From NCBI GenBank assembly GCA_963796685.1, contig CAWCMR010000008.1, forward strand, positions 448,001 through 512,000: DNA of 64,000 nt, given 5' to 3'. The notes under the pieces were generated by a model. It was not told the origin of the DNA, did not search any database, and saw only the letters and a program-made list of their open reading frames with translations. Made by a program: the position numbers and the translations under genes. How positions within the stretch are numbered: position 1 is the stretch's first letter; each line of letters starts with the position of its first letter. The DNA comes from an uncultured delta proteobacterium. Lineage in GTDB: Bacteria > Myxococcota_A > Polyangia > Fen-1088. Positions 1,724-9,069 of the stretch are shown here, piece by piece.

Positions 1724-4700
1724 ATGCCCTCCGTCGTGCTGTCGTGTTTCTTCCTTTCCGGCGCCTCGGGTCTCATCCTCGAAGCTCCTGTGGACGCGCA
1801 TGCTGACGCTCGTCTTCGGCTCGACGGCCCTGGCCGTGTCGACGGTGCTGACCGCGTACATGGGCGGCCTCGGGCTCGGCTCGTACCTGGCGGGCAAGAT
1901 CAGCGACCGGCTCAAGGAGCCCGTGCGTGCCTACGCGTTGGCCGAGGCGGCCATCGGTCTCTACGCGCTGTCCGTGCCGTGGATCATCGGCTACTACCCG
2001 GGGCTCAACCAGTGGCTGTGGTCGACCTTCGGCGACCGCTACACCTTGCTCTCCGTCCTGCGCTTCTTCGCCTCGGCCGGGCTGCTCATCGTGCCGACCA
2101 CGCTCATGGGCGCGACCTTGCCGATCCTGGCCCGCTATTTCGTCTCGCGTCCCTACGAGCTTGGCCGCGTCAGCCTGCGCCTCGGGACGCTGTACGCGGT
2201 CAATTTGTTCGGTGCCGTGGCCGGCTCCTTCATGGCCGGCTTCATTTTCCTGCCCATGATCGGGATCCGCCACACCAACCTGGTGGCGGCCAGCTTCGAC
2301 ATGTCGCTGGCGGTCGCCATCCTGGTCGCGCGACGCCTGATGCCGGCCGGAAAGACGATCCGGGTCAATGAATCGCTCGACGAGCTTGCGGCGGCGCAAA
2401 AGGCCGCCGCCGGGGGCCCCGCGACTGCCCTGCCTGCCATTTCGCCCGCGGCCCGGCGCGTCGTGCTTCTCGCCTTCGCCGTCTCCGGCGCAACGGCCAT
2501 GACCTTGCAGGTGCTGTGGACGCGCGCCCTGGCCGTGATCATCGGCTCGTCCATCTTCTCGTTCACCATCATCCTGCTCGCGTTTCTCATCGGGCTCGGC
2601 GCTGGCTCGGCGGTCTTCGGCCGGCTGGTCACGCGTTTCCGCGATCCGGTGCGCGGGCTCGCCCTTACCCACCTCGGCATCGTCCTGTGCATCGGGCTGT
2701 CGTATCTCATCACCGATCGACTGCCCTTCGTCTTCACCTACTTGCTGTCCTCGACCATGGTCAGCTCCGACGCGGTCCTGACCTGCCAATTCGCCCTCGC
2801 CTGCCTCGCCGTTCTGCCCTCCACGTTCCTGATGGGCGCCATCTTTCCCATCACCGTGCGCGTGGTGACGGGAAATCTCGGCACCGTGGGCCGCGACGTC
2901 GGCTTCGCCTACGCCCTCAACACCGTGGGCGCCATCATCGGCTCGTTCTTTTCCGGCTTCGTGATCTTGCCCAGTCTCGGGCTGCAGCGGGGAATTTACC
3001 TGGCCGCGGTCGTCGACCTGGCCTTGGCCGCCCTGCTCTTTTCCGTTGCGTCCAGCCTGCCGCGCGCGCGCCGGATGATCGGGATGGCCACCGCGGTGGC
3101 CATGGCCCTGGCGGCCCTGGTGCTTCCCCGCTGGAACCTGACCAGCTTCTCCATCGGGTTCTTCCGCATCTCCATGGCCCGCGACTACATCGACATGGTC
3201 GAGCACCGCCACCAGAAGAAGAAATGGCAGACGCCCAAGCTGGTTTATTACAAGGACGGCATCGCCACCACGGTGTCGGTGGACCAGTGGGGCAAGGTGT
3301 TCTCCCTCAAGAACAACGGCAAGGTCGATGCCTCGAACGACGCCGACATGCCCACGCAGATCAGCGTCGGCCTCTTGCCGCTTCTCCTCTATGGCGGGGA
3401 TCACGCGCCCAAGGTCGCCCTCATCGGCTACGGCTCGGGCGTCACGGCCGGCGCCACCACCCAGTACCCCATCGCCAGCCTGGAGGTCGTCGAGCTGGAG
3501 CCGGCCATCTACGAGGCCGCGCACTTCTTCGACAATGTGAACCATCGCCCCACGGAGAATCCGAAGGTCAAGGCCATCGCGGGCGACGGGCGCAATTTCC
3601 TCTCCCAGCGTCGCGATCTTTACGACGTCATCATCAGCCAGCCGTCCAATCCCTGGATCACGGGCGTCTCGAACCTGTTCACGCGCGAGTACTTCCAGTC
3701 CGTCAAGTCGCGCCTGGCCGACGATGGCATCTTCTGCCAATGGGCGCAGCTCTACGAGATGGCGCCCTGGAACATCAAGGCCATCTACCGCACCTTGACC
3801 GAGGAGTTTCCCTACGTGATGGTCTTCGCGGCCGAGGATCTGTCCTCGGACACCATCCTCATCGCCAGCCGAAAGCCCATCGATCTCGACATCCGCAAGA
3901 TCGCGCGCGCCTTCAAGAACCCGGCAACCGCAGCCGAGGCCAAGCGCGCCGGCTTCGATTCGCCGCACGACGTGCCCGCCTTCGTGCTGCTCGGTCCCGA
4001 AGAGCTGCACTCATTCGTCGCCGGCGCGCAGCTCAACACCGACGACAACGCCCTCATCGAATTCGCGGCGCCGCGCGATCTGCTGCGCTACCAGGCCTAC
4101 GATCCCTACCTGGCCAAAGTGTACGGTCCCATGTGGCCTTACGGGCACCTGACGGGCGTGGTCGAAGGCTACGACGGCGCAACGCGCGCCTCGGACATGG
4201 CCCACCTGGCGCGCAGCCTGCTGGCCCATGGCAAGGCGCGCGAGGCCAAGCTGTGGCAAGGCCGCGCCGAGGCCGCGGCGGACAAGAACGCGGCCAACCC
4301 CGATGTGGCCCACACGCGCCTGCTGCTCGAATTGGTGGCGACCCGCGAGGATCGCGATCCCGAGATTCCCCTCGCCCCCGAGGACGGCCTTGTGCCCCCG
4401 GTCATCCCGCCCGACCTGTCGGCCGAAATCGCGACGCGCGTGCGCGAGGAGTACGTGGACGTCACAGCCCAGGTCGAGAAGAACAAGTACGCCGGCGCCT
4501 TCAAGATGATCGAGGATTGGCCGGAACAGACCTGGGGCGGGAAGCTCGGCAAGGACTTCTCTTTGCTCACCGGTTTTCTCGACTACAAGGCGGAGTTCTA
4601 TGGCGACGCCATCGACGAATTGAAGCCGCTGGCCGACAACGCCGAGCTCGCCAAGCGGCGGCCCGAGCTGCTCTACTACCTCGGGCGCTCGTACTTCGCC

Positions 4701-4832
4701 AACGCCAACTGTGCCAAGGCGGTGGCGGCGCTCGAACGCTACATCGTGGCGCAAGAAGCGCTGGGACGGCCCGTCTTACCGGCGTCGGCCCAAGCAGACG
4801 AAGGGGACGAAGCGGACGGAGCGGAAAAGTAA
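1724..4832 (+). CDS. Fused MFS-like membrane domain / spermidine synthase-like protein with C-terminal TPR-like region; apparent +1 frameshift near 1783
   Basis: MPSVVLSCFFLSGASGLILE joins LLWTRMLTLVFGST if one base of 'gaag' is removed. Many TM helices, SAM-type motif LIGYGSGVT, VVELEP, GDGRNFL and YDVIISQPSNPW. Confidence 0.88.
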
Positions 4833-4863
4833 CAAACCACCACGTCGGTGGTACCATGAGTCC

Positions 4864-5859
4864 GTGGCCAAGCAGCGCGCCAGACCTCCATCCGCCCGCG
4901 GCCGAACCAGGGGCCGAGAAAAGGCCGCCGCCAAGCCGCGGCCTGAGCCGCCCCGCACGGTGGTGGGCGTCGGACTGGCCACCGTCGATCTTCTCTTCGT
5001 TTCCCCGCGCATCGACGAACGGCTGGTCGATGCCTCGGTCTTCAGCATGCAGGCCGGCGGTTCGGCTTCGAACATGCTGGCCGCCCTGGCCGTCCTGGGG
5101 GCAAAGACGCGCTTCTTCGGCCGCATCGCCGACGACGAGCACGGCCACTTCATCCTGCGCAGCATGCAGAACCTGCGCATCGACACCTCCATGCTCATGG
5201 TCGAAAAGGACAAGGTCTCGCCGGTGTCCATTCTGCAAATCGACGAGCTTACGCGACGGCGCAAGATCTTGCGCTCGCGTGGCAACGTCACCCCGCTGTC
5301 GCCGCGCGATCTGCCGGCCGGCTTGCTCGGCGACGCGGCCATGTTGCTCATCGACGGCACCCAACCGGCCGTGCAGGCCGCCATCGCCGAGAAGGCGCGC
5401 GACAAGGGCATCAAGGTGCTGCTCAACGCCAGCCAGCTCTCGGGCGGGATGGGCGAGCTGCTCTCGCTCTCGGACATCGTCATCGGTTCGGAGCGGTTCG
5501 CCCACGAGCTGGCCCCTTCCGACAACATGGGCGACAGCCTGCGCGAAATCCTCAATCTGGGTCCGCGCATCGCGCTCATCACCATGGGTGAAACCGGCGT
5601 GGTCGGATTGGAGGGCAGCAAGCTGGTCGAGCAGGAAGCCCTGGACGTGTTCGTGGCCGACACGTCGGGCGCCGGAGATGCCTTCGCGGGCGCCTTCGCT
5701 TTCGCCCAGCTGCACGGCTGGCCCCTGGAAAAGGCGGTGCCCTTCGCCAACGCCGCCGCCGGCCTGGTGTGCCGCAGTATCGGCGCGCGCTCCGCGCTAC
5801 CCACGGTGGAGGAGATCGTCGCGGCGATGGACGGCGCTCAGCCCGGCCCGAAATCCTGA
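4864..5859 (+). CDS. PfkB/ribokinase-family carbohydrate kinase
   Basis: VGVGLATVD, GGSASN and C-terminal DTSGAGDAFAGAF signature. Start codon (GTG) uncertain. Confidence 0.9.
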   Translation: MAKQRARPPSARGRTRGREKAAAKPRPEPPRTVVGVGLATVDLLFVSPRIDERLVDASVFSMQAGGSASNMLAALAVLGAKTRFFGRIADDEHGHFILRSMQNLRIDTSMLMVEKDKVSPVSILQIDELTRRRKILRSRGNVTPLSPRDLPAGLLGDAAMLLIDGTQPAVQAAIAEKARDKGIKVLLNASQLSGGMGELLSLSDIVIGSERFAHELAPSDNMGDSLREILNLGPRIALITMGETGVVGLEGSKLVEQEALDVFVADTSGAGDAFAGAFAFAQLHGWPLEKAVPFANAAAGLVCRSIGARSALPTVEEIVAAMDGAQPGPKS

Positions 5860-5895: not shown

Positions 5896-6135
5896 CTACT
5901 GCTTGCTCGGCTCGGCCGGCACTGCGGGCATGCCTGGCACGAAATGCTGCGGAAAAGCCTGGAAGCCCCACTGGGCGGTCAGCCGCTTGGTGAAATCCGA
6001 CAGCTCGCCCACGCTCAGGTTGCTGAGATAGTTGGCGACCTGCTCGCGAGAAGGTGGCATGCGGCGGCCCAACACGAGGCCGAGGATGAGTCCCGCCACC
6101 AGACTGATGACCGAGGTAATGAATAGGCGTTTCAT
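5896..6135 (-). CDS. Small single-TM protein with a ribosomal L7/L12 N-terminal-domain-like segment
   Basis: MKR plus hydrophobic helix, then SREQVANYLSNLSVGELSDFTKRLTAQWG and a Pro/Ala tail. RBS-like AGGAAG upstream. Confidence 0.7.
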   Translation of the reverse strand: MKRLFITSVISLVAGLILGLVLGRRMPPSREQVANYLSNLSVGELSDFTKRLTAQWGFQAFPQHFVPGMPAVPAEPSKQ

Positions 6136-6263
6136 GGGCTTCCTTCGTCCTTGGGTGTGCGTCGCGATTGGGCTCGATGCTAGCACGCGGACCGAGCACC
6201 AAGCACCATCCGCATCGTGTTGCCTCTTTTGGGTTTTGGACCGAGTTGTGCCAATCTCCTGGC

Positions 6264-6707
6264 ATGGCCTTGAGCCGAGAGCTTCCCTCGAATGTCGTTC
6301 TACTCGTCCTGCGCGCCGTGGTGGGCGTCAACATGGCCTGCCTGCACGGCTGGGACAAATTGCACCACTTCAGCTCCAGGCTGGGCAGCGTCCCCGATCC
6401 CTTCGGCATGGGGCCCAAGTATGCCCTGATGGTCGCCGTGGTCGGGGAATTGTTCGGCGGCGTCCTGCTCGCCACAGGCTTGCTCGGCCGCGCGGGCGCG
6501 TTCCTGGTCGCCTTCATGTCCGCCGTGACCCTCTCCTCGACCCTTCACGGCTCCCCCTGGCACGAGCGCGAGCTGTGGGGACTCTACCTCGCCGCCAGTT
6601 TGACGGTTCTCCTGCTCGGCTGCGGGCGCTATTCTCTCGATACCGTGGTCTGGAAGAAGCTCGGCAAGGGCGGCGGAAAAGGCGCGCCCGCGCCGTCGAA
6701 GAAGTAG
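6264..6707 (+). CDS. DoxX-family membrane protein
   Basis: LRAVVG...HGWDKL...ELFGGVLLATGLLGR...GCGRYSLD pattern with four TM segments. Confidence 0.9.
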   Translation: MALSRELPSNVVLLVLRAVVGVNMACLHGWDKLHHFSSRLGSVPDPFGMGPKYALMVAVVGELFGGVLLATGLLGRAGAFLVAFMSAVTLSSTLHGSPWHERELWGLYLAASLTVLLLGCGRYSLDTVVWKKLGKGGGKGAPAPSKK

Positions 6708-6720
6708 TCACCGGCCTCGA

Positions 6721-9069
6721 TCATCTGCGCGCGCTCACGAAGATGTCGGGCTTGGGCGGATCGGCCATGCCGGCGCCGATGTGGAAACCGACGTGCGGAG
6801 GCTGGTTGTAGCTCGATTGCTCGAAGGAGACCTGCGCTCGGTAGGTCGGATCGTGCATGAGGGTGTAGATTCTGCGCTTGGTCACATCCGTGGTGGTGTA
6901 CACGCGCAGGGCCGAGCTGTTCGATTCGCGCAACACGAGCTCCTCGCGCCAGTCGCCGAGCAGGTCGGCCGTGAGGGTCGGCGTGGACTTGGTGCCGTTG
7001 TTCGAGGCGCACCCGCTCGCGCTGAGCAAAGTCCCACCTCCGGACTTGGTGATCGACGTGTCGCTCTCCAGCTCGCGCGCCTCGTCGGCGTCCCAATAGA
7101 TGAGGAAGTTGCTGCCGGCGTTGCCGCTGACCGTGGTGCCGGTGCCACAGTTGACGTTCCCGCCCGTCGAGCTCGAGCAAGTCGCGGCGGTGAGGTCGTT
7201 CATGGTCACGTACTCGGCGACGCCGCGGCCGGTGTCGGTGTCGGCCTTCGTGATGTTGAAGTAGAACGCGCAGGTGGCGCCGTCGTGGCAATCCATGCCG
7301 CCCGCGGACTCGTGGACCGTGAACACCGAGATCCCTTTGCCTTTGACCAGCTCCCCGACGTGCATGGCGTCGCCATGGCCGAGCCCCGTGGTGCACTTGA
7401 GGGTTCCGTCGCTGCCGATGGTCGAGGCGCCGGTGATGATCTCCTGCGCCCCGTCGCCATCCACATCCGCAGCCATCGCCGAGTGATCCCCCTGGCCGGC
7501 GGCTTTGCCGTTTCCGGAGCCGTCGCTGTCGAAGGTCCAGAGCTTCGACAAAGCTCCATCGCGCCAATTGTAGGCCGATACCGTCAGGCGCGTGTAGTAC
7601 CCGCGCTGCTGGATGATGCTGGGCCGCCCGGTCGCGGTCTTGCCGCTGCCCGTGTCGCTCACGAATGCGAAGCCGCCATTGTAGCGGTCGAGTCGGTTGC
7701 CGTACGAATCGCCCCAGCTCGACACCGTCCCGCGCGGCACGGGATAGCTCACGGTCGACAGCTCCTTGCCGGTGGCCCCATCGAAGACGGTCAAGTACTC
7801 GGGCCCGGTAAGGATGTAGCCATCCGAATTGGCGTACTTGGCGCTATCGTCGTCGCTGGCGGCCGGGCCCTTGCTCAAATACGCGCCCGTGCCGTCCTTG
7901 GTGCCCGGCGCCGTCTTGCACGCCACCTCGGCCTTGCCATCGCCATCGAAGTCGTACACCGAGAATTGCGTGTAGTGTGCCCCAGCGCGAATGTTCGGCC
8001 CCAAGTCGATGCGCCACAGGCGCTTACCCGCCAGGGTGTAGCCGTCCAGAAAGACGTTCGAGGTGACACCAGATTGAGAATTGTCCTTCGCATCCGACGG
8101 ATCCCATTTGAGCACGATGTCGTAGATGCCGTCGCCGTCCAGGTCTCCGGGACTGCCGTCGTTCGCGCTGTAGCTCGCCCCCGACGGGCTGTTGGCGGGC
8201 ACGTCGAGCGGAATGCGAAGATAGTCCTGTGCCCAGGTCGTCACCGAAGGCGACTGCGCGCACTCGGTTCCGTCGATGACAGCGGCCACGGTGTAGGTCG
8301 AGCTGGCGGAGCCGCCGGCATCGAGATAGTTGGTGCTGTCGGTGGCCGTGGCAAGCTTGGTGCCGCCCCGATACACGTTGTACGCGATGCTGCCGGGGCT
8401 GGTCGGATTGTACTCGTACCCCATCATGCGCCAGCCCACGTAAACGCCGCCCGTGACCTTCACGGCCACCACGCCGCGATCGAGGTCTTCCATCTGGAAG
8501 TGCCCGGTCGTGGGCGGAACGCAGGATCCGGCCTGCTTCGTGCCGCCCGCGCCAGAGCTGCCACCGCTCCCACCGCTCGCTCCGCCGGTCGTCGTGTCGA
8601 GACCACCGGCTGCCGTGGCTCTTCCACTGGCTGCCATCCCGCCACCCGTCGCGCTCGCCACACCGCCGGTCGCCGTGGCGGTGCCACCGCTTCCGGACGT
8701 CGCCGGCGCGTCGACGAACGTATCCCTGGGCGCGGCATCGGCGGTCGTGGAGGCTCCACCCGCCCCACCCATGGTGCTGGGCAGGCTGGTGCCCGCGCCC
8801 CCCCTGCCGCCCATCGCGGTCGCGCCACCCGCCCCCCCCATGCTCGACGTCGAGCCCCCCATCGAGGTGGTCGTGGACACGCCGGATCCTCCGGCCCCGC
8901 TCGTCCCCGGGTGGGTGGCGCCCCCCGCGCCCGAGACCGTAGTGCCGCCGCCCGCTCCGGGCGTCGTGGCCCCCTTGCCCGTGGAATCGCAAGCCCCGAT
9001 CAGGAAGCTTGCCCCCAGAAGCGCCAGGAATATTCCTCGGGGCGTCGAGATTCTCCGAATCGCGCTCAT
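6721..9069 (-). CDS. Rhamnogalacturonan lyase, PL11 (YesW/YesX-like), lipoprotein with Gly/Thr-rich linker
   Basis: Lipobox LIGAC, MEDLDRGVVAV, WRIDLGPNIRAGAHYTQF, GHGDAMH, ADLLGDWREE and TLMHDPTYR...YNQPPH. Confidence 0.93.
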   Translation of the reverse strand: MSAIRRISTPRGIFLALLGASFLIGACDSTGKGATTPGAGGGTTVSGAGGATHPGTSGAGGSGVSTTTSMGGSTSSMGGAGGATAMGGRGGAGTSLPSTMGGAGGASTTADAAPRDTFVDAPATSGSGGTATATGGVASATGGGMAASGRATAAGGLDTTTGGASGGSGGSSGAGGTKQAGSCVPPTTGHFQMEDLDRGVVAVKVTGGVYVGWRMMGYEYNPTSPGSIAYNVYRGGTKLATATDSTNYLDAGGSASSTYTVAAVIDGTECAQSPSVTTWAQDYLRIPLDVPANSPSGASYSANDGSPGDLDGDGIYDIVLKWDPSDAKDNSQSGVTSNVFLDGYTLAGKRLWRIDLGPNIRAGAHYTQFSVYDFDGDGKAEVACKTAPGTKDGTGAYLSKGPAASDDDSAKYANSDGYILTGPEYLTVFDGATGKELSTVSYPVPRGTVSSWGDSYGNRLDRYNGGFAFVSDTGSGKTATGRPSIIQQRGYYTRLTVSAYNWRDGALSKLWTFDSDGSGNGKAAGQGDHSAMAADVDGDGAQEIITGASTIGSDGTLKCTTGLGHGDAMHVGELVKGKGISVFTVHESAGGMDCHDGATCAFYFNITKADTDTGRGVAEYVTMNDLTAATCSSSTGGNVNCGTGTTVSGNAGSNFLIYWDADEARELESDTSITKSGGGTLLSASGCASNNGTKSTPTLTADLLGDWREELVLRESNSSALRVYTTTDVTKRRIYTLMHDPTYRAQVSFEQSSYNQPPHVGFHIGAGMADPPKPDIFVSARR

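Follow-up and report, generated by a model that had tools for sequence, protein, structure and literature searches.

The bL12 stalk is the factor-recruiting arm of the ribosome, and the N-terminal domain of bL12 dimerises and docks on helix alpha8 of uL10. We describe here a small gene whose 79-residue product places a homologue of this domain (Pfam Ribosomal_L12_N, PF16320; L12_N below) behind a predicted membrane helix. The gene lies on the minus strand at 5896-6135 of a 64,000-nucleotide stretch of DNA from an uncultured delta proteobacterium (GTDB lineage Bacteria; Myxococcota_A; Polyangia; Fen-1088), namely positions 448,001 to 512,000 of the forward strand of contig CAWCMR010000008.1 in assembly GCA_963796685.1; this whole stretch is called the window.

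The closest described systems each share one aspect of this mini-protein. The nearest is bL12 itself, which has the homologous two-helix hairpin followed by a flexible segment containing Pro and Ala, the start of the hinge, to which the mini-protein aligns; the mini-protein differs by an added transmembrane helix and the lack of the C-terminal factor-binding domain. Its gene, unlike rplL, stands alone as a monocistronic unit well away from rplJL and, among the genomes searched, is confined to one genus. E. coli ribosomes that carry a single bL12 dimer in place of two are reportedly slower in the steps that depend on IF2 and EF-G, with effects on initiation and elongation (PMC3299993). YqjD, ElaB and YgaM (DUF883) are C-tail-anchored membrane proteins of E. 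coli for which a preprint reports binding and inactivation of ribosomes, with action at the tunnel exit, tethering of the large subunit at the membrane and inhibition of translation (bioRxiv 10.1101/2024.08.16.608256). They too are small and membrane-anchored, and they serve as an analogy for the proposed function only: their anchor is C-terminal and their site the tunnel exit, whereas the mini-protein has an N-terminal anchor, no sequence relation to them and a putative binding to ribosomes. The paralogues bL31B/YkgM are described in a review as alternative ribosomal proteins that act as full-length replacements under zinc regulation (PMC10931766). The mini-protein resembles them as a ribosomal-protein paralogue that could replace the canonical one, and differs as a partial copy without the functional C-domain and with a membrane anchor. 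Two ESM Atlas clusters consisting of L12_N only (57 residues, 99% PF16320; 77 residues, 100% PF16320) share the absence of the C-terminal domain; no transmembrane helix is reported for them, they may be stand-alone genes or truncated calls, and with search scores of at most 0.77 they are leads only (feature score 0.76, TM-score 0.42).

In the full-text literature searched, outside which lie subscription journals and supplements, we found no description of an L12_N-only or membrane-anchored bL12 paralogue, and the accessible part of the 2024 review of extraribosomal functions mentions none (PMC10931766). A reading of the DNA made earlier without database searches (the sequence-only reading) had named no described protein of this kind, and within that literature the combination of a transmembrane helix with L12_N was indeed not found. 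The mini-protein is a known domain in an undescribed architecture.

The soluble part and the bL12 N-terminal domain

The product, MKRLFITSVISLVAGLILGLVLGRRMPPSREQVANYLSNLSVGELSDFTKRLTAQWGFQAFPQHFVPGMPAVPAEPSKQ, is laid out in the window as follows.

5896-6135, minus strand: coding sequence of the mini-protein, 79 codons; stop codon 5896-5898, ATG 6133-6135
6127-6135, minus strand: N-tail Met-Lys-Arg; K2 is invariant and position 3 always K or R in a 27-sequence alignment
6067-6126, minus strand: predicted transmembrane helix, residues 4-23, LFITSVISLVAGLILGLVLG; hydrophobic, uncharged, 20 residues
5962-6051, minus strand: helical hairpin like the bL12 N-terminal domain, residues 29-58, SREQVANYLSNLSVGELSDFTKRLTAQWGF; from the PF16320 match, BLASTP, hhalign and AlphaFold2
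5899-5961, minus strand: Pro-rich tail, residues 59-79, QAFPQHFVPGMPAVPAEPSKQ; a conserved FQAFP, then variable
6139-6146, minus strand: Shine-Dalgarno-like GAAGGAAG, 3 bases 5´ of the ATG, read from the sequence

The linker RRMPP sits between the transmembrane helix and the hairpin. A single hydrophobic helix, the bL12-like segment and a Pro-rich tail had been noticed in the sequence-only reading, which left the strand unstated; all three lie in this open reading frame (ORF).

Against PF16320 the window protein gives an E-value of 3.2e-4 and 20.8 bits over residues 31-72, the gathering cut-off being 25 bits. In a six-frame PF16320 scan of the 7.3-Mb genome, the mini-ORF ranks second after rplL with 21.1 bits, and the next match has 15.3. 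BLASTP against the genome's own bL12 (P0056), whose N-terminus is MADVSKEQVVDFLSKLSVMDIAALTKELEDKWG, aligns residues 29-59 with 5-35 at 14/31 identities (45%); the N-terminus given for Polyangia bL12 in the sequence-only reading is close to this actual one. Profile comparison extends the relation to the family. An alignment of 27 mini-proteins that contains no bL12 (A4) matches eight bL12 sequences of the family in hhalign with a probability of 97.4% and E 1.5e-11 over 43 columns, and as a profile against the PDB it retrieves Thermotoga maritima bL12 (1dd3_A) at E 4.2e-5; the narrower alignment of close relatives (A1) reaches bL12 in the PDB at E 0.45-0.85. Searched in its own genome, the A1 profile has rplL as its only other match (E 1.3e-6), and partial matches in seven other loci turned out, when checked, to be rplL. 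The Pfam, BLASTP and hhalign values put the resemblance beyond chance, and L12_N profile matches exist where the sequence-only reading had allowed for their absence.

At E<=0.01, PF16320 matches were obtained for 28 of the 55 close members of the family (best E 1e-5), and one relative, P0018, carries a precomputed PF16320 label. Of ten distant or diverged members, three show no match; the other seven do, and their match clears the cut-off in two (26.4 and 27.4 bits) and falls short of it in five. An exhaustive profile search of 1.84 billion representative proteins returned 20 at E<=1e-3; judged by their sequences, 16 are mini-proteins of like build or over-called versions of them, and the remaining four are N-terminal fragments of bL12 (two) and repeat proteins without relation to the family (two). 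The distant member P0069 and the window protein are identical at 40% of 63 aligned residues, the transmembrane helix among them; with this genome's bL12, P0069 reaches 48% identity over 33 residues. Some bL12 fragments are closer to the window protein than is the host's bL12, among them P0076, which aligns with it at 17/34. By these comparisons, homology of the soluble part to the bL12 N-terminal dimerisation domain is established; the protein appears to be a single-pass membrane protein whose soluble part, shown to be homologous, would descend from the 5´ part of rplL and the start of its hinge.

The rest of bL12 is missing. No bL12 C-terminal domain (PF00542), nor any Pfam match besides L12_N, was found in the 79-residue protein, in agreement with the earlier claim that the factor-binding domain is absent, and the full-length bL12 model TIGR00855 gives a weak match of 12.9 bits against a cut-off of 84.4. 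The mini-protein itself is no bL12.

Automatic PF16320 labels call for caution, as is seen in P0066, a eukaryote-type protein of 1,481 residues in which 15 PYRIN stretches sum to 70.9 bits on Ribosomal_L12_N, a spurious match. The repeat protein P0074 was rejected as a relative for the same kind of spurious summed repeat matches.

AlphaFold2, run with alignment A4, predicts one membrane helix and a two-helix hairpin as expected of L12_N (mean predicted local distance difference test, pLDDT, 74.8), with helices at residues 2-25, 30-38 and 42-56 and a disordered tail. By block, pLDDT is 88-92 for the membrane helix, 78-85 for the hairpin and about 50 for the tail, which has no secondary structure. 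The hairpin appears to retain all that the profile treats as essential for the fold. A Foldseek search of the monomer model against the PDB gave two matches, both with E>5 and unusable for a helical model of 79 residues. In 52 of the 60 members with a short N-tail, the hydrophobic uncharged stretch is 20 residues long, and it carries a small-xxx-small ladder, S11/G15/G19/G23. Across the wide family G19 never varies and G15 is kept in at least 90%; close members almost always have S11, and most of the sequences have G or A at position 23. This S/G-xxx-G ladder may form a helix-packing face like that of a glycine zipper. The Pro-rich tail corresponds in alignment to the beginning of the Ala/Pro hinge of bL12, and its last residue is K or R in nearly all relatives.

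Conservation, locus and origin of the gene

The mini-gene is a real and conserved gene, restricted to a lineage and under purifying selection. A word-indexed search of 5.8 billion proteins found 54 relatives of 51-96 residues with 62-91% identity, which the sources label "hypothetical". We surveyed 89 genomes of the order, all of one family, counting as full-length a match from profile position 1 to 73-78. On this definition the mini-protein occurs in 13/13 genomes of the window's genus, in the same slot, and in 0/76 other genomes of the family (18 genera; profile search); conserved homologues, whose lack the sequence-only reading had taken as a sign of a spurious ORF or gene fragment, are thus at hand. 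The 13 orthologues are 75-81 residues long and every one begins MKR, and the ATG start is fixed by in-frame stop codons one and four codons upstream of it in two of them. The median ratio of nonsynonymous to synonymous substitution rates (dN/dS) is 0.126 for residues 1-62 (36 pairs among the nine closer orthologues). For residues 1-25 with the membrane helix it is 0.19 (35/36 pairs usable), and for the bL12-like part 0.20. The protein evolves faster than its neighbours, identity in diverged species being 40-43% against 75-77% for the PfkB-family kinase next door.

The Shine-Dalgarno-like GAAGGAAG recurs, the same or nearly so, upstream of the ATG in 8/13 orthologous loci. It is missing in three orthologues (L015, L017, L018), which have in common a g(c/g)tagcat(c/t) 10-20 bases upstream of the ATG, possibly a -10-like element with a very short leader. 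A simple scan around the mini-gene saw neither a sigma-70-like promoter nor an intrinsic terminator. On the contig the mini-gene is at about 454 kb and rplL, downstream of rplJ, at about 17 kb, some 437 kb away, so that the gene lies outside the rplJL operon as had been claimed. Its immediate neighbours are the following.

4711-5859, plus strand: PfkB-family carbohydrate kinase (PF00294, E 1.4e-40), convergent with the mini-gene
6264-6707, plus strand: DoxX-family membrane protein (PF07681, E 1.1e-11), divergent from the mini-gene

The DoxX gene adjoins the mini-gene in 11/13 loci of the genus (L010-L022), and a gene with a spermidine-synthase domain followed by PfkB is an order conserved across the family. 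Among 15 loci of other genera, the DoxX gene is present in seven; in 6/7 of these it begins on the same strand at most about 140 bases past the point where the PfkB alignment stops, too short a gap for another gene. With the threshold relaxed to E<=10, the 26 PfkB loci from other genera still gave no mini-gene (1,747 frames scanned; four hits, all in the genus). PfkB and DoxX thus adjoin elsewhere without the mini-gene, which therefore entered between them, on the strand opposite to both, by an insertion in the genus ancestor. The seventh DoxX locus, in a sister genus, has in the PfkB-DoxX gap an unrelated ORF of 222 residues with Cys-rich repeats, again on the opposite strand (L067:2702-3370, minus strand). 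Since this ORF occupies the slot, the slot took up different small genes in different genera.

Beyond the family, a profile search of 400 genomes sampled from the phylum (E<=1e-7) yielded no full-length mini-protein; the matches there are read as rplL because all start at profile position 19 or later, mostly in frames of bL12 size. A few distant mini-proteins that join a transmembrane helix to L12_N occur in metagenomes. These distant members (P0064, P0065, P0069-P0073) are 67-77 residues long and have in common an MKK start, a helix with G15/G19 and the hairpin. One locus of a distant member was seen twice, on two metagenome contigs (L061, L062), among unrelated small genes and a helicase and with nothing ribosomal. 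P0070 is whole in one copy of this locus (L061:2367-2585), and in the other (L062:1602-1769) the match covers residues 1-56 and runs into the next gene; this partial copy may be truncated. So patchy a distribution suggests that the gene reached the genus by transfer and did not arise within it, a choice that the data do not decide.

A phage origin was rejected, no relative being found in viral contigs with two family profiles or in 50,697 phage records by tblastn, and neither PHROGs nor PADLOC gave a family for the four members searched. Fusion to other domains was considered for four longer proteins, none of them convincing: the N-terminal extensions of P0077 and P0078 are over-called, the C-terminal one of P0079 is of low complexity, and in P0061 (292 residues) no further Pfam domain was found. 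A search of sequencing runs by words matched four DNA runs with a share of at most 0.11, and no RNA run was among the matches.

The wider surroundings hold larger genes. Next to the DoxX gene is a family-11 rhamnogalacturonan lyase of 782 residues (6721-9069, minus strand; RGL11_C at E 9e-177, RGI_lyase and FG-GAP), whose N-terminus is a signal-like start followed by about 190 residues rich in Gly, Ala, Ser and Thr. On the other side, a polytopic membrane protein of 1,010 residues with the spermidine-synthase domain occupies 1800-4832 on the plus strand, and the end of its ORF overlaps the longest PfkB ORF by 122 bases. The first 80 or so residues of that PfkB ORF are basic and of low complexity and the Pfam match begins at residue 84, so that the true PfkB start may be later.

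Membrane topology

The charges that flank the helix are ambiguous for topology. All 60 members with a short N-tail have exactly two K/R in it; the 12 residues after the helix hold one K/R in 5 members, two in 28 and three in 27, with net charges of this C flank from -1 to +3. The net charge of the N side minus that of the C side is -1 in 1 member, 0 in 27, +1 in 22, +2 in 7 and +3 in 3. In diverged species of the genus, the helix is followed by HKL(S/Q)PT(D/E), with one K and a net charge of 0 to -1. A cytoplasmic face for the hairpin is favoured by the K/R counts of the window protein, six over all 56 residues past the helix and two before it, and by the RR or RK that comes right after the helix in most members; moreover, the only known partners of the L12_N domain are cytoplasmic. 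We lean slightly towards a C-terminus inside the cytoplasm, a view that rests in part on a prior drawn from the origin of the domain. A cleaved signal peptide is disfavoured by the conserved ladder of the helix. A lipoprotein was rejected on inspection of the sequences: a Cys at position 7-8 of distant members is too near the N-terminus for a lipobox.

Proposed function and alternatives

One possible reading, which we hold tentatively and give somewhat less than an even chance, is that the mini-protein is a cytoplasm-facing mimic of the stalk, acting as a membrane-bound decoy or tether. A copy of bL12 would have shed its factor-binding C-terminal domain and acquired a membrane helix at the N-terminus. 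The hairpin would face the cytoplasm and pair with itself, aided by the S/G-xxx-G face of the transmembrane helix, or with bL12, and the dimer would occupy a bL12 site on helix alpha8 of uL10. The ribosome so bound, or free bL12, would be held at the membrane, and fewer factor-recruiting C-terminal domains would mean slower IF2- and EF-G-dependent steps. That the dimer takes a bL12 site or pairs with bL12 in this way, so that ribosomes or the pool of free bL12 are pinned at the inner membrane and the number of factor-recruiting arms is tuned, is conceivable and a shade more doubtful than stalk mimicry as such. The sequence-only reading had proposed a stalk mimic of this kind; its homology to L12_N, loss of the C-domain, conservation under selection and novelty stood up, and the activity that it imagined is kept here as a proposal. 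The bL12 likeness kept in distant members fits a continued constraint by a stalk partner, and fits equally a purely structural constraint. A complex prediction with the C-terminal 57 residues of uL10 and two copies of the soluble part, made without controls, gave a score of 0.14 and a mark of 0.32, which speak neither for nor against the proposal.

Several observations weigh against the stalk reading. The window protein itself is below the PF16320 cut-off, and in this genus L-T-A-Q stands where helix 2 of bL12 has its acidic LE-D/E-K. The neighbouring genes have no role in translation. The C-terminus of uL10 is equally long in this genus and in sister genera that lack the gene, so that there is no extra docking site on uL10. 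The invariant MK(K/R) before a hydrophobic stretch (60/60) is as in signal peptides and type II anchors, just one K/R is found in the 12-residue C flank of 5/60 members, and V/L/I at position 21 together with G/A at position 23 might even pass for a signal-peptidase site.

The rplJ gene of this genome, which encodes uL10 (L001:1729-2257; contig C8, about 17 kb, outside the window), reads in one frame to ...AIAYSTEDPSAP and then in another (AKVAAKMAKVESKF...ALKNGENK). Comparison with the intact rplJ genes of relatives reveals a frameshift, which is likelier a sequencing error because the sequence is a metagenome-assembled genome, 88.6% complete with 6.5% contamination.

In a rival explanation, the protein is of type II (N-in, C-out) or even cleaved and the hairpin is a small periplasmic dimerisation module with a role unrelated to ribosomes, for example in envelope spacing or structure or as the partner of a membrane protein. 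Besides the invariant MK(K/R) start, the N side has a net charge at least equal to that of the 12-residue C flank in 59/60 members, the diverged species of the genus have a single K and no net positive charge after the helix, the Pro-rich tail ends in a conserved K/R, and the divergent neighbour is a membrane protein adjoined by the secreted rhamnogalacturonan lyase. Positive charges past a hydrophobic helix hinder Sec export, however, and the RR/RK after the helix, with three K/R within 12 residues in 27/60 members, is unfavourable for it; a 20-residue helix with a conserved S/G ladder is also unlike a cleaved signal peptide, and the cytoplasmic partners of L12_N speak on the same side. We regard a periplasmic hairpin as possible, though rather doubtful.

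Many bacterial small proteins regulate membrane complexes, and the hairpin could also lie in the cytoplasm and off the ribosome, forming with the glycine-ladder helix a dimeric small membrane protein of this type. The transmembrane helix is as constrained as the hairpin (dN/dS 0.19 and 0.20), which suggests specific helix packing in the membrane; the loss of the bL12-like acidic patch in the genus and a gene context without translation genes also agree with such a role. Yet the L12_N signature is kept in distant members, in some above the Pfam cut-off, no candidate partner gene is conserved alongside, and the distant member at L061 has quite different neighbours, so we consider this explanation unlikely. 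Far less probable still is that the ORF is spurious or the remnant of a duplicated rplL in decay. A short "hypothetical" ORF below the Pfam cut-off, in a high-GC genome with many long open frames, might raise that suspicion, but the same locus, the same start and a similar length in 13/13 genomes of the genus, the median dN/dS, the 54 homologues and a conserved N-terminal transmembrane helix that rplL lacks refute it for practical purposes.

If the membrane-bound stalk decoy or tether is true, the mini-protein would be a stalk-directed, membrane-bound regulator of ribosomes of an undescribed kind. The copy number of the bL12 stalk is reported to affect the speed of translation (PMC3299993), and a membrane-anchored L12_N would open a direct route to two questions, the positioning or silencing of ribosomes at the bacterial membrane and a possible regulation of stalk composition. 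Even if the hairpin is periplasmic, the family would document something rare, a small membrane protein that took up a domain of a ribosomal protein and has retained it under selection.
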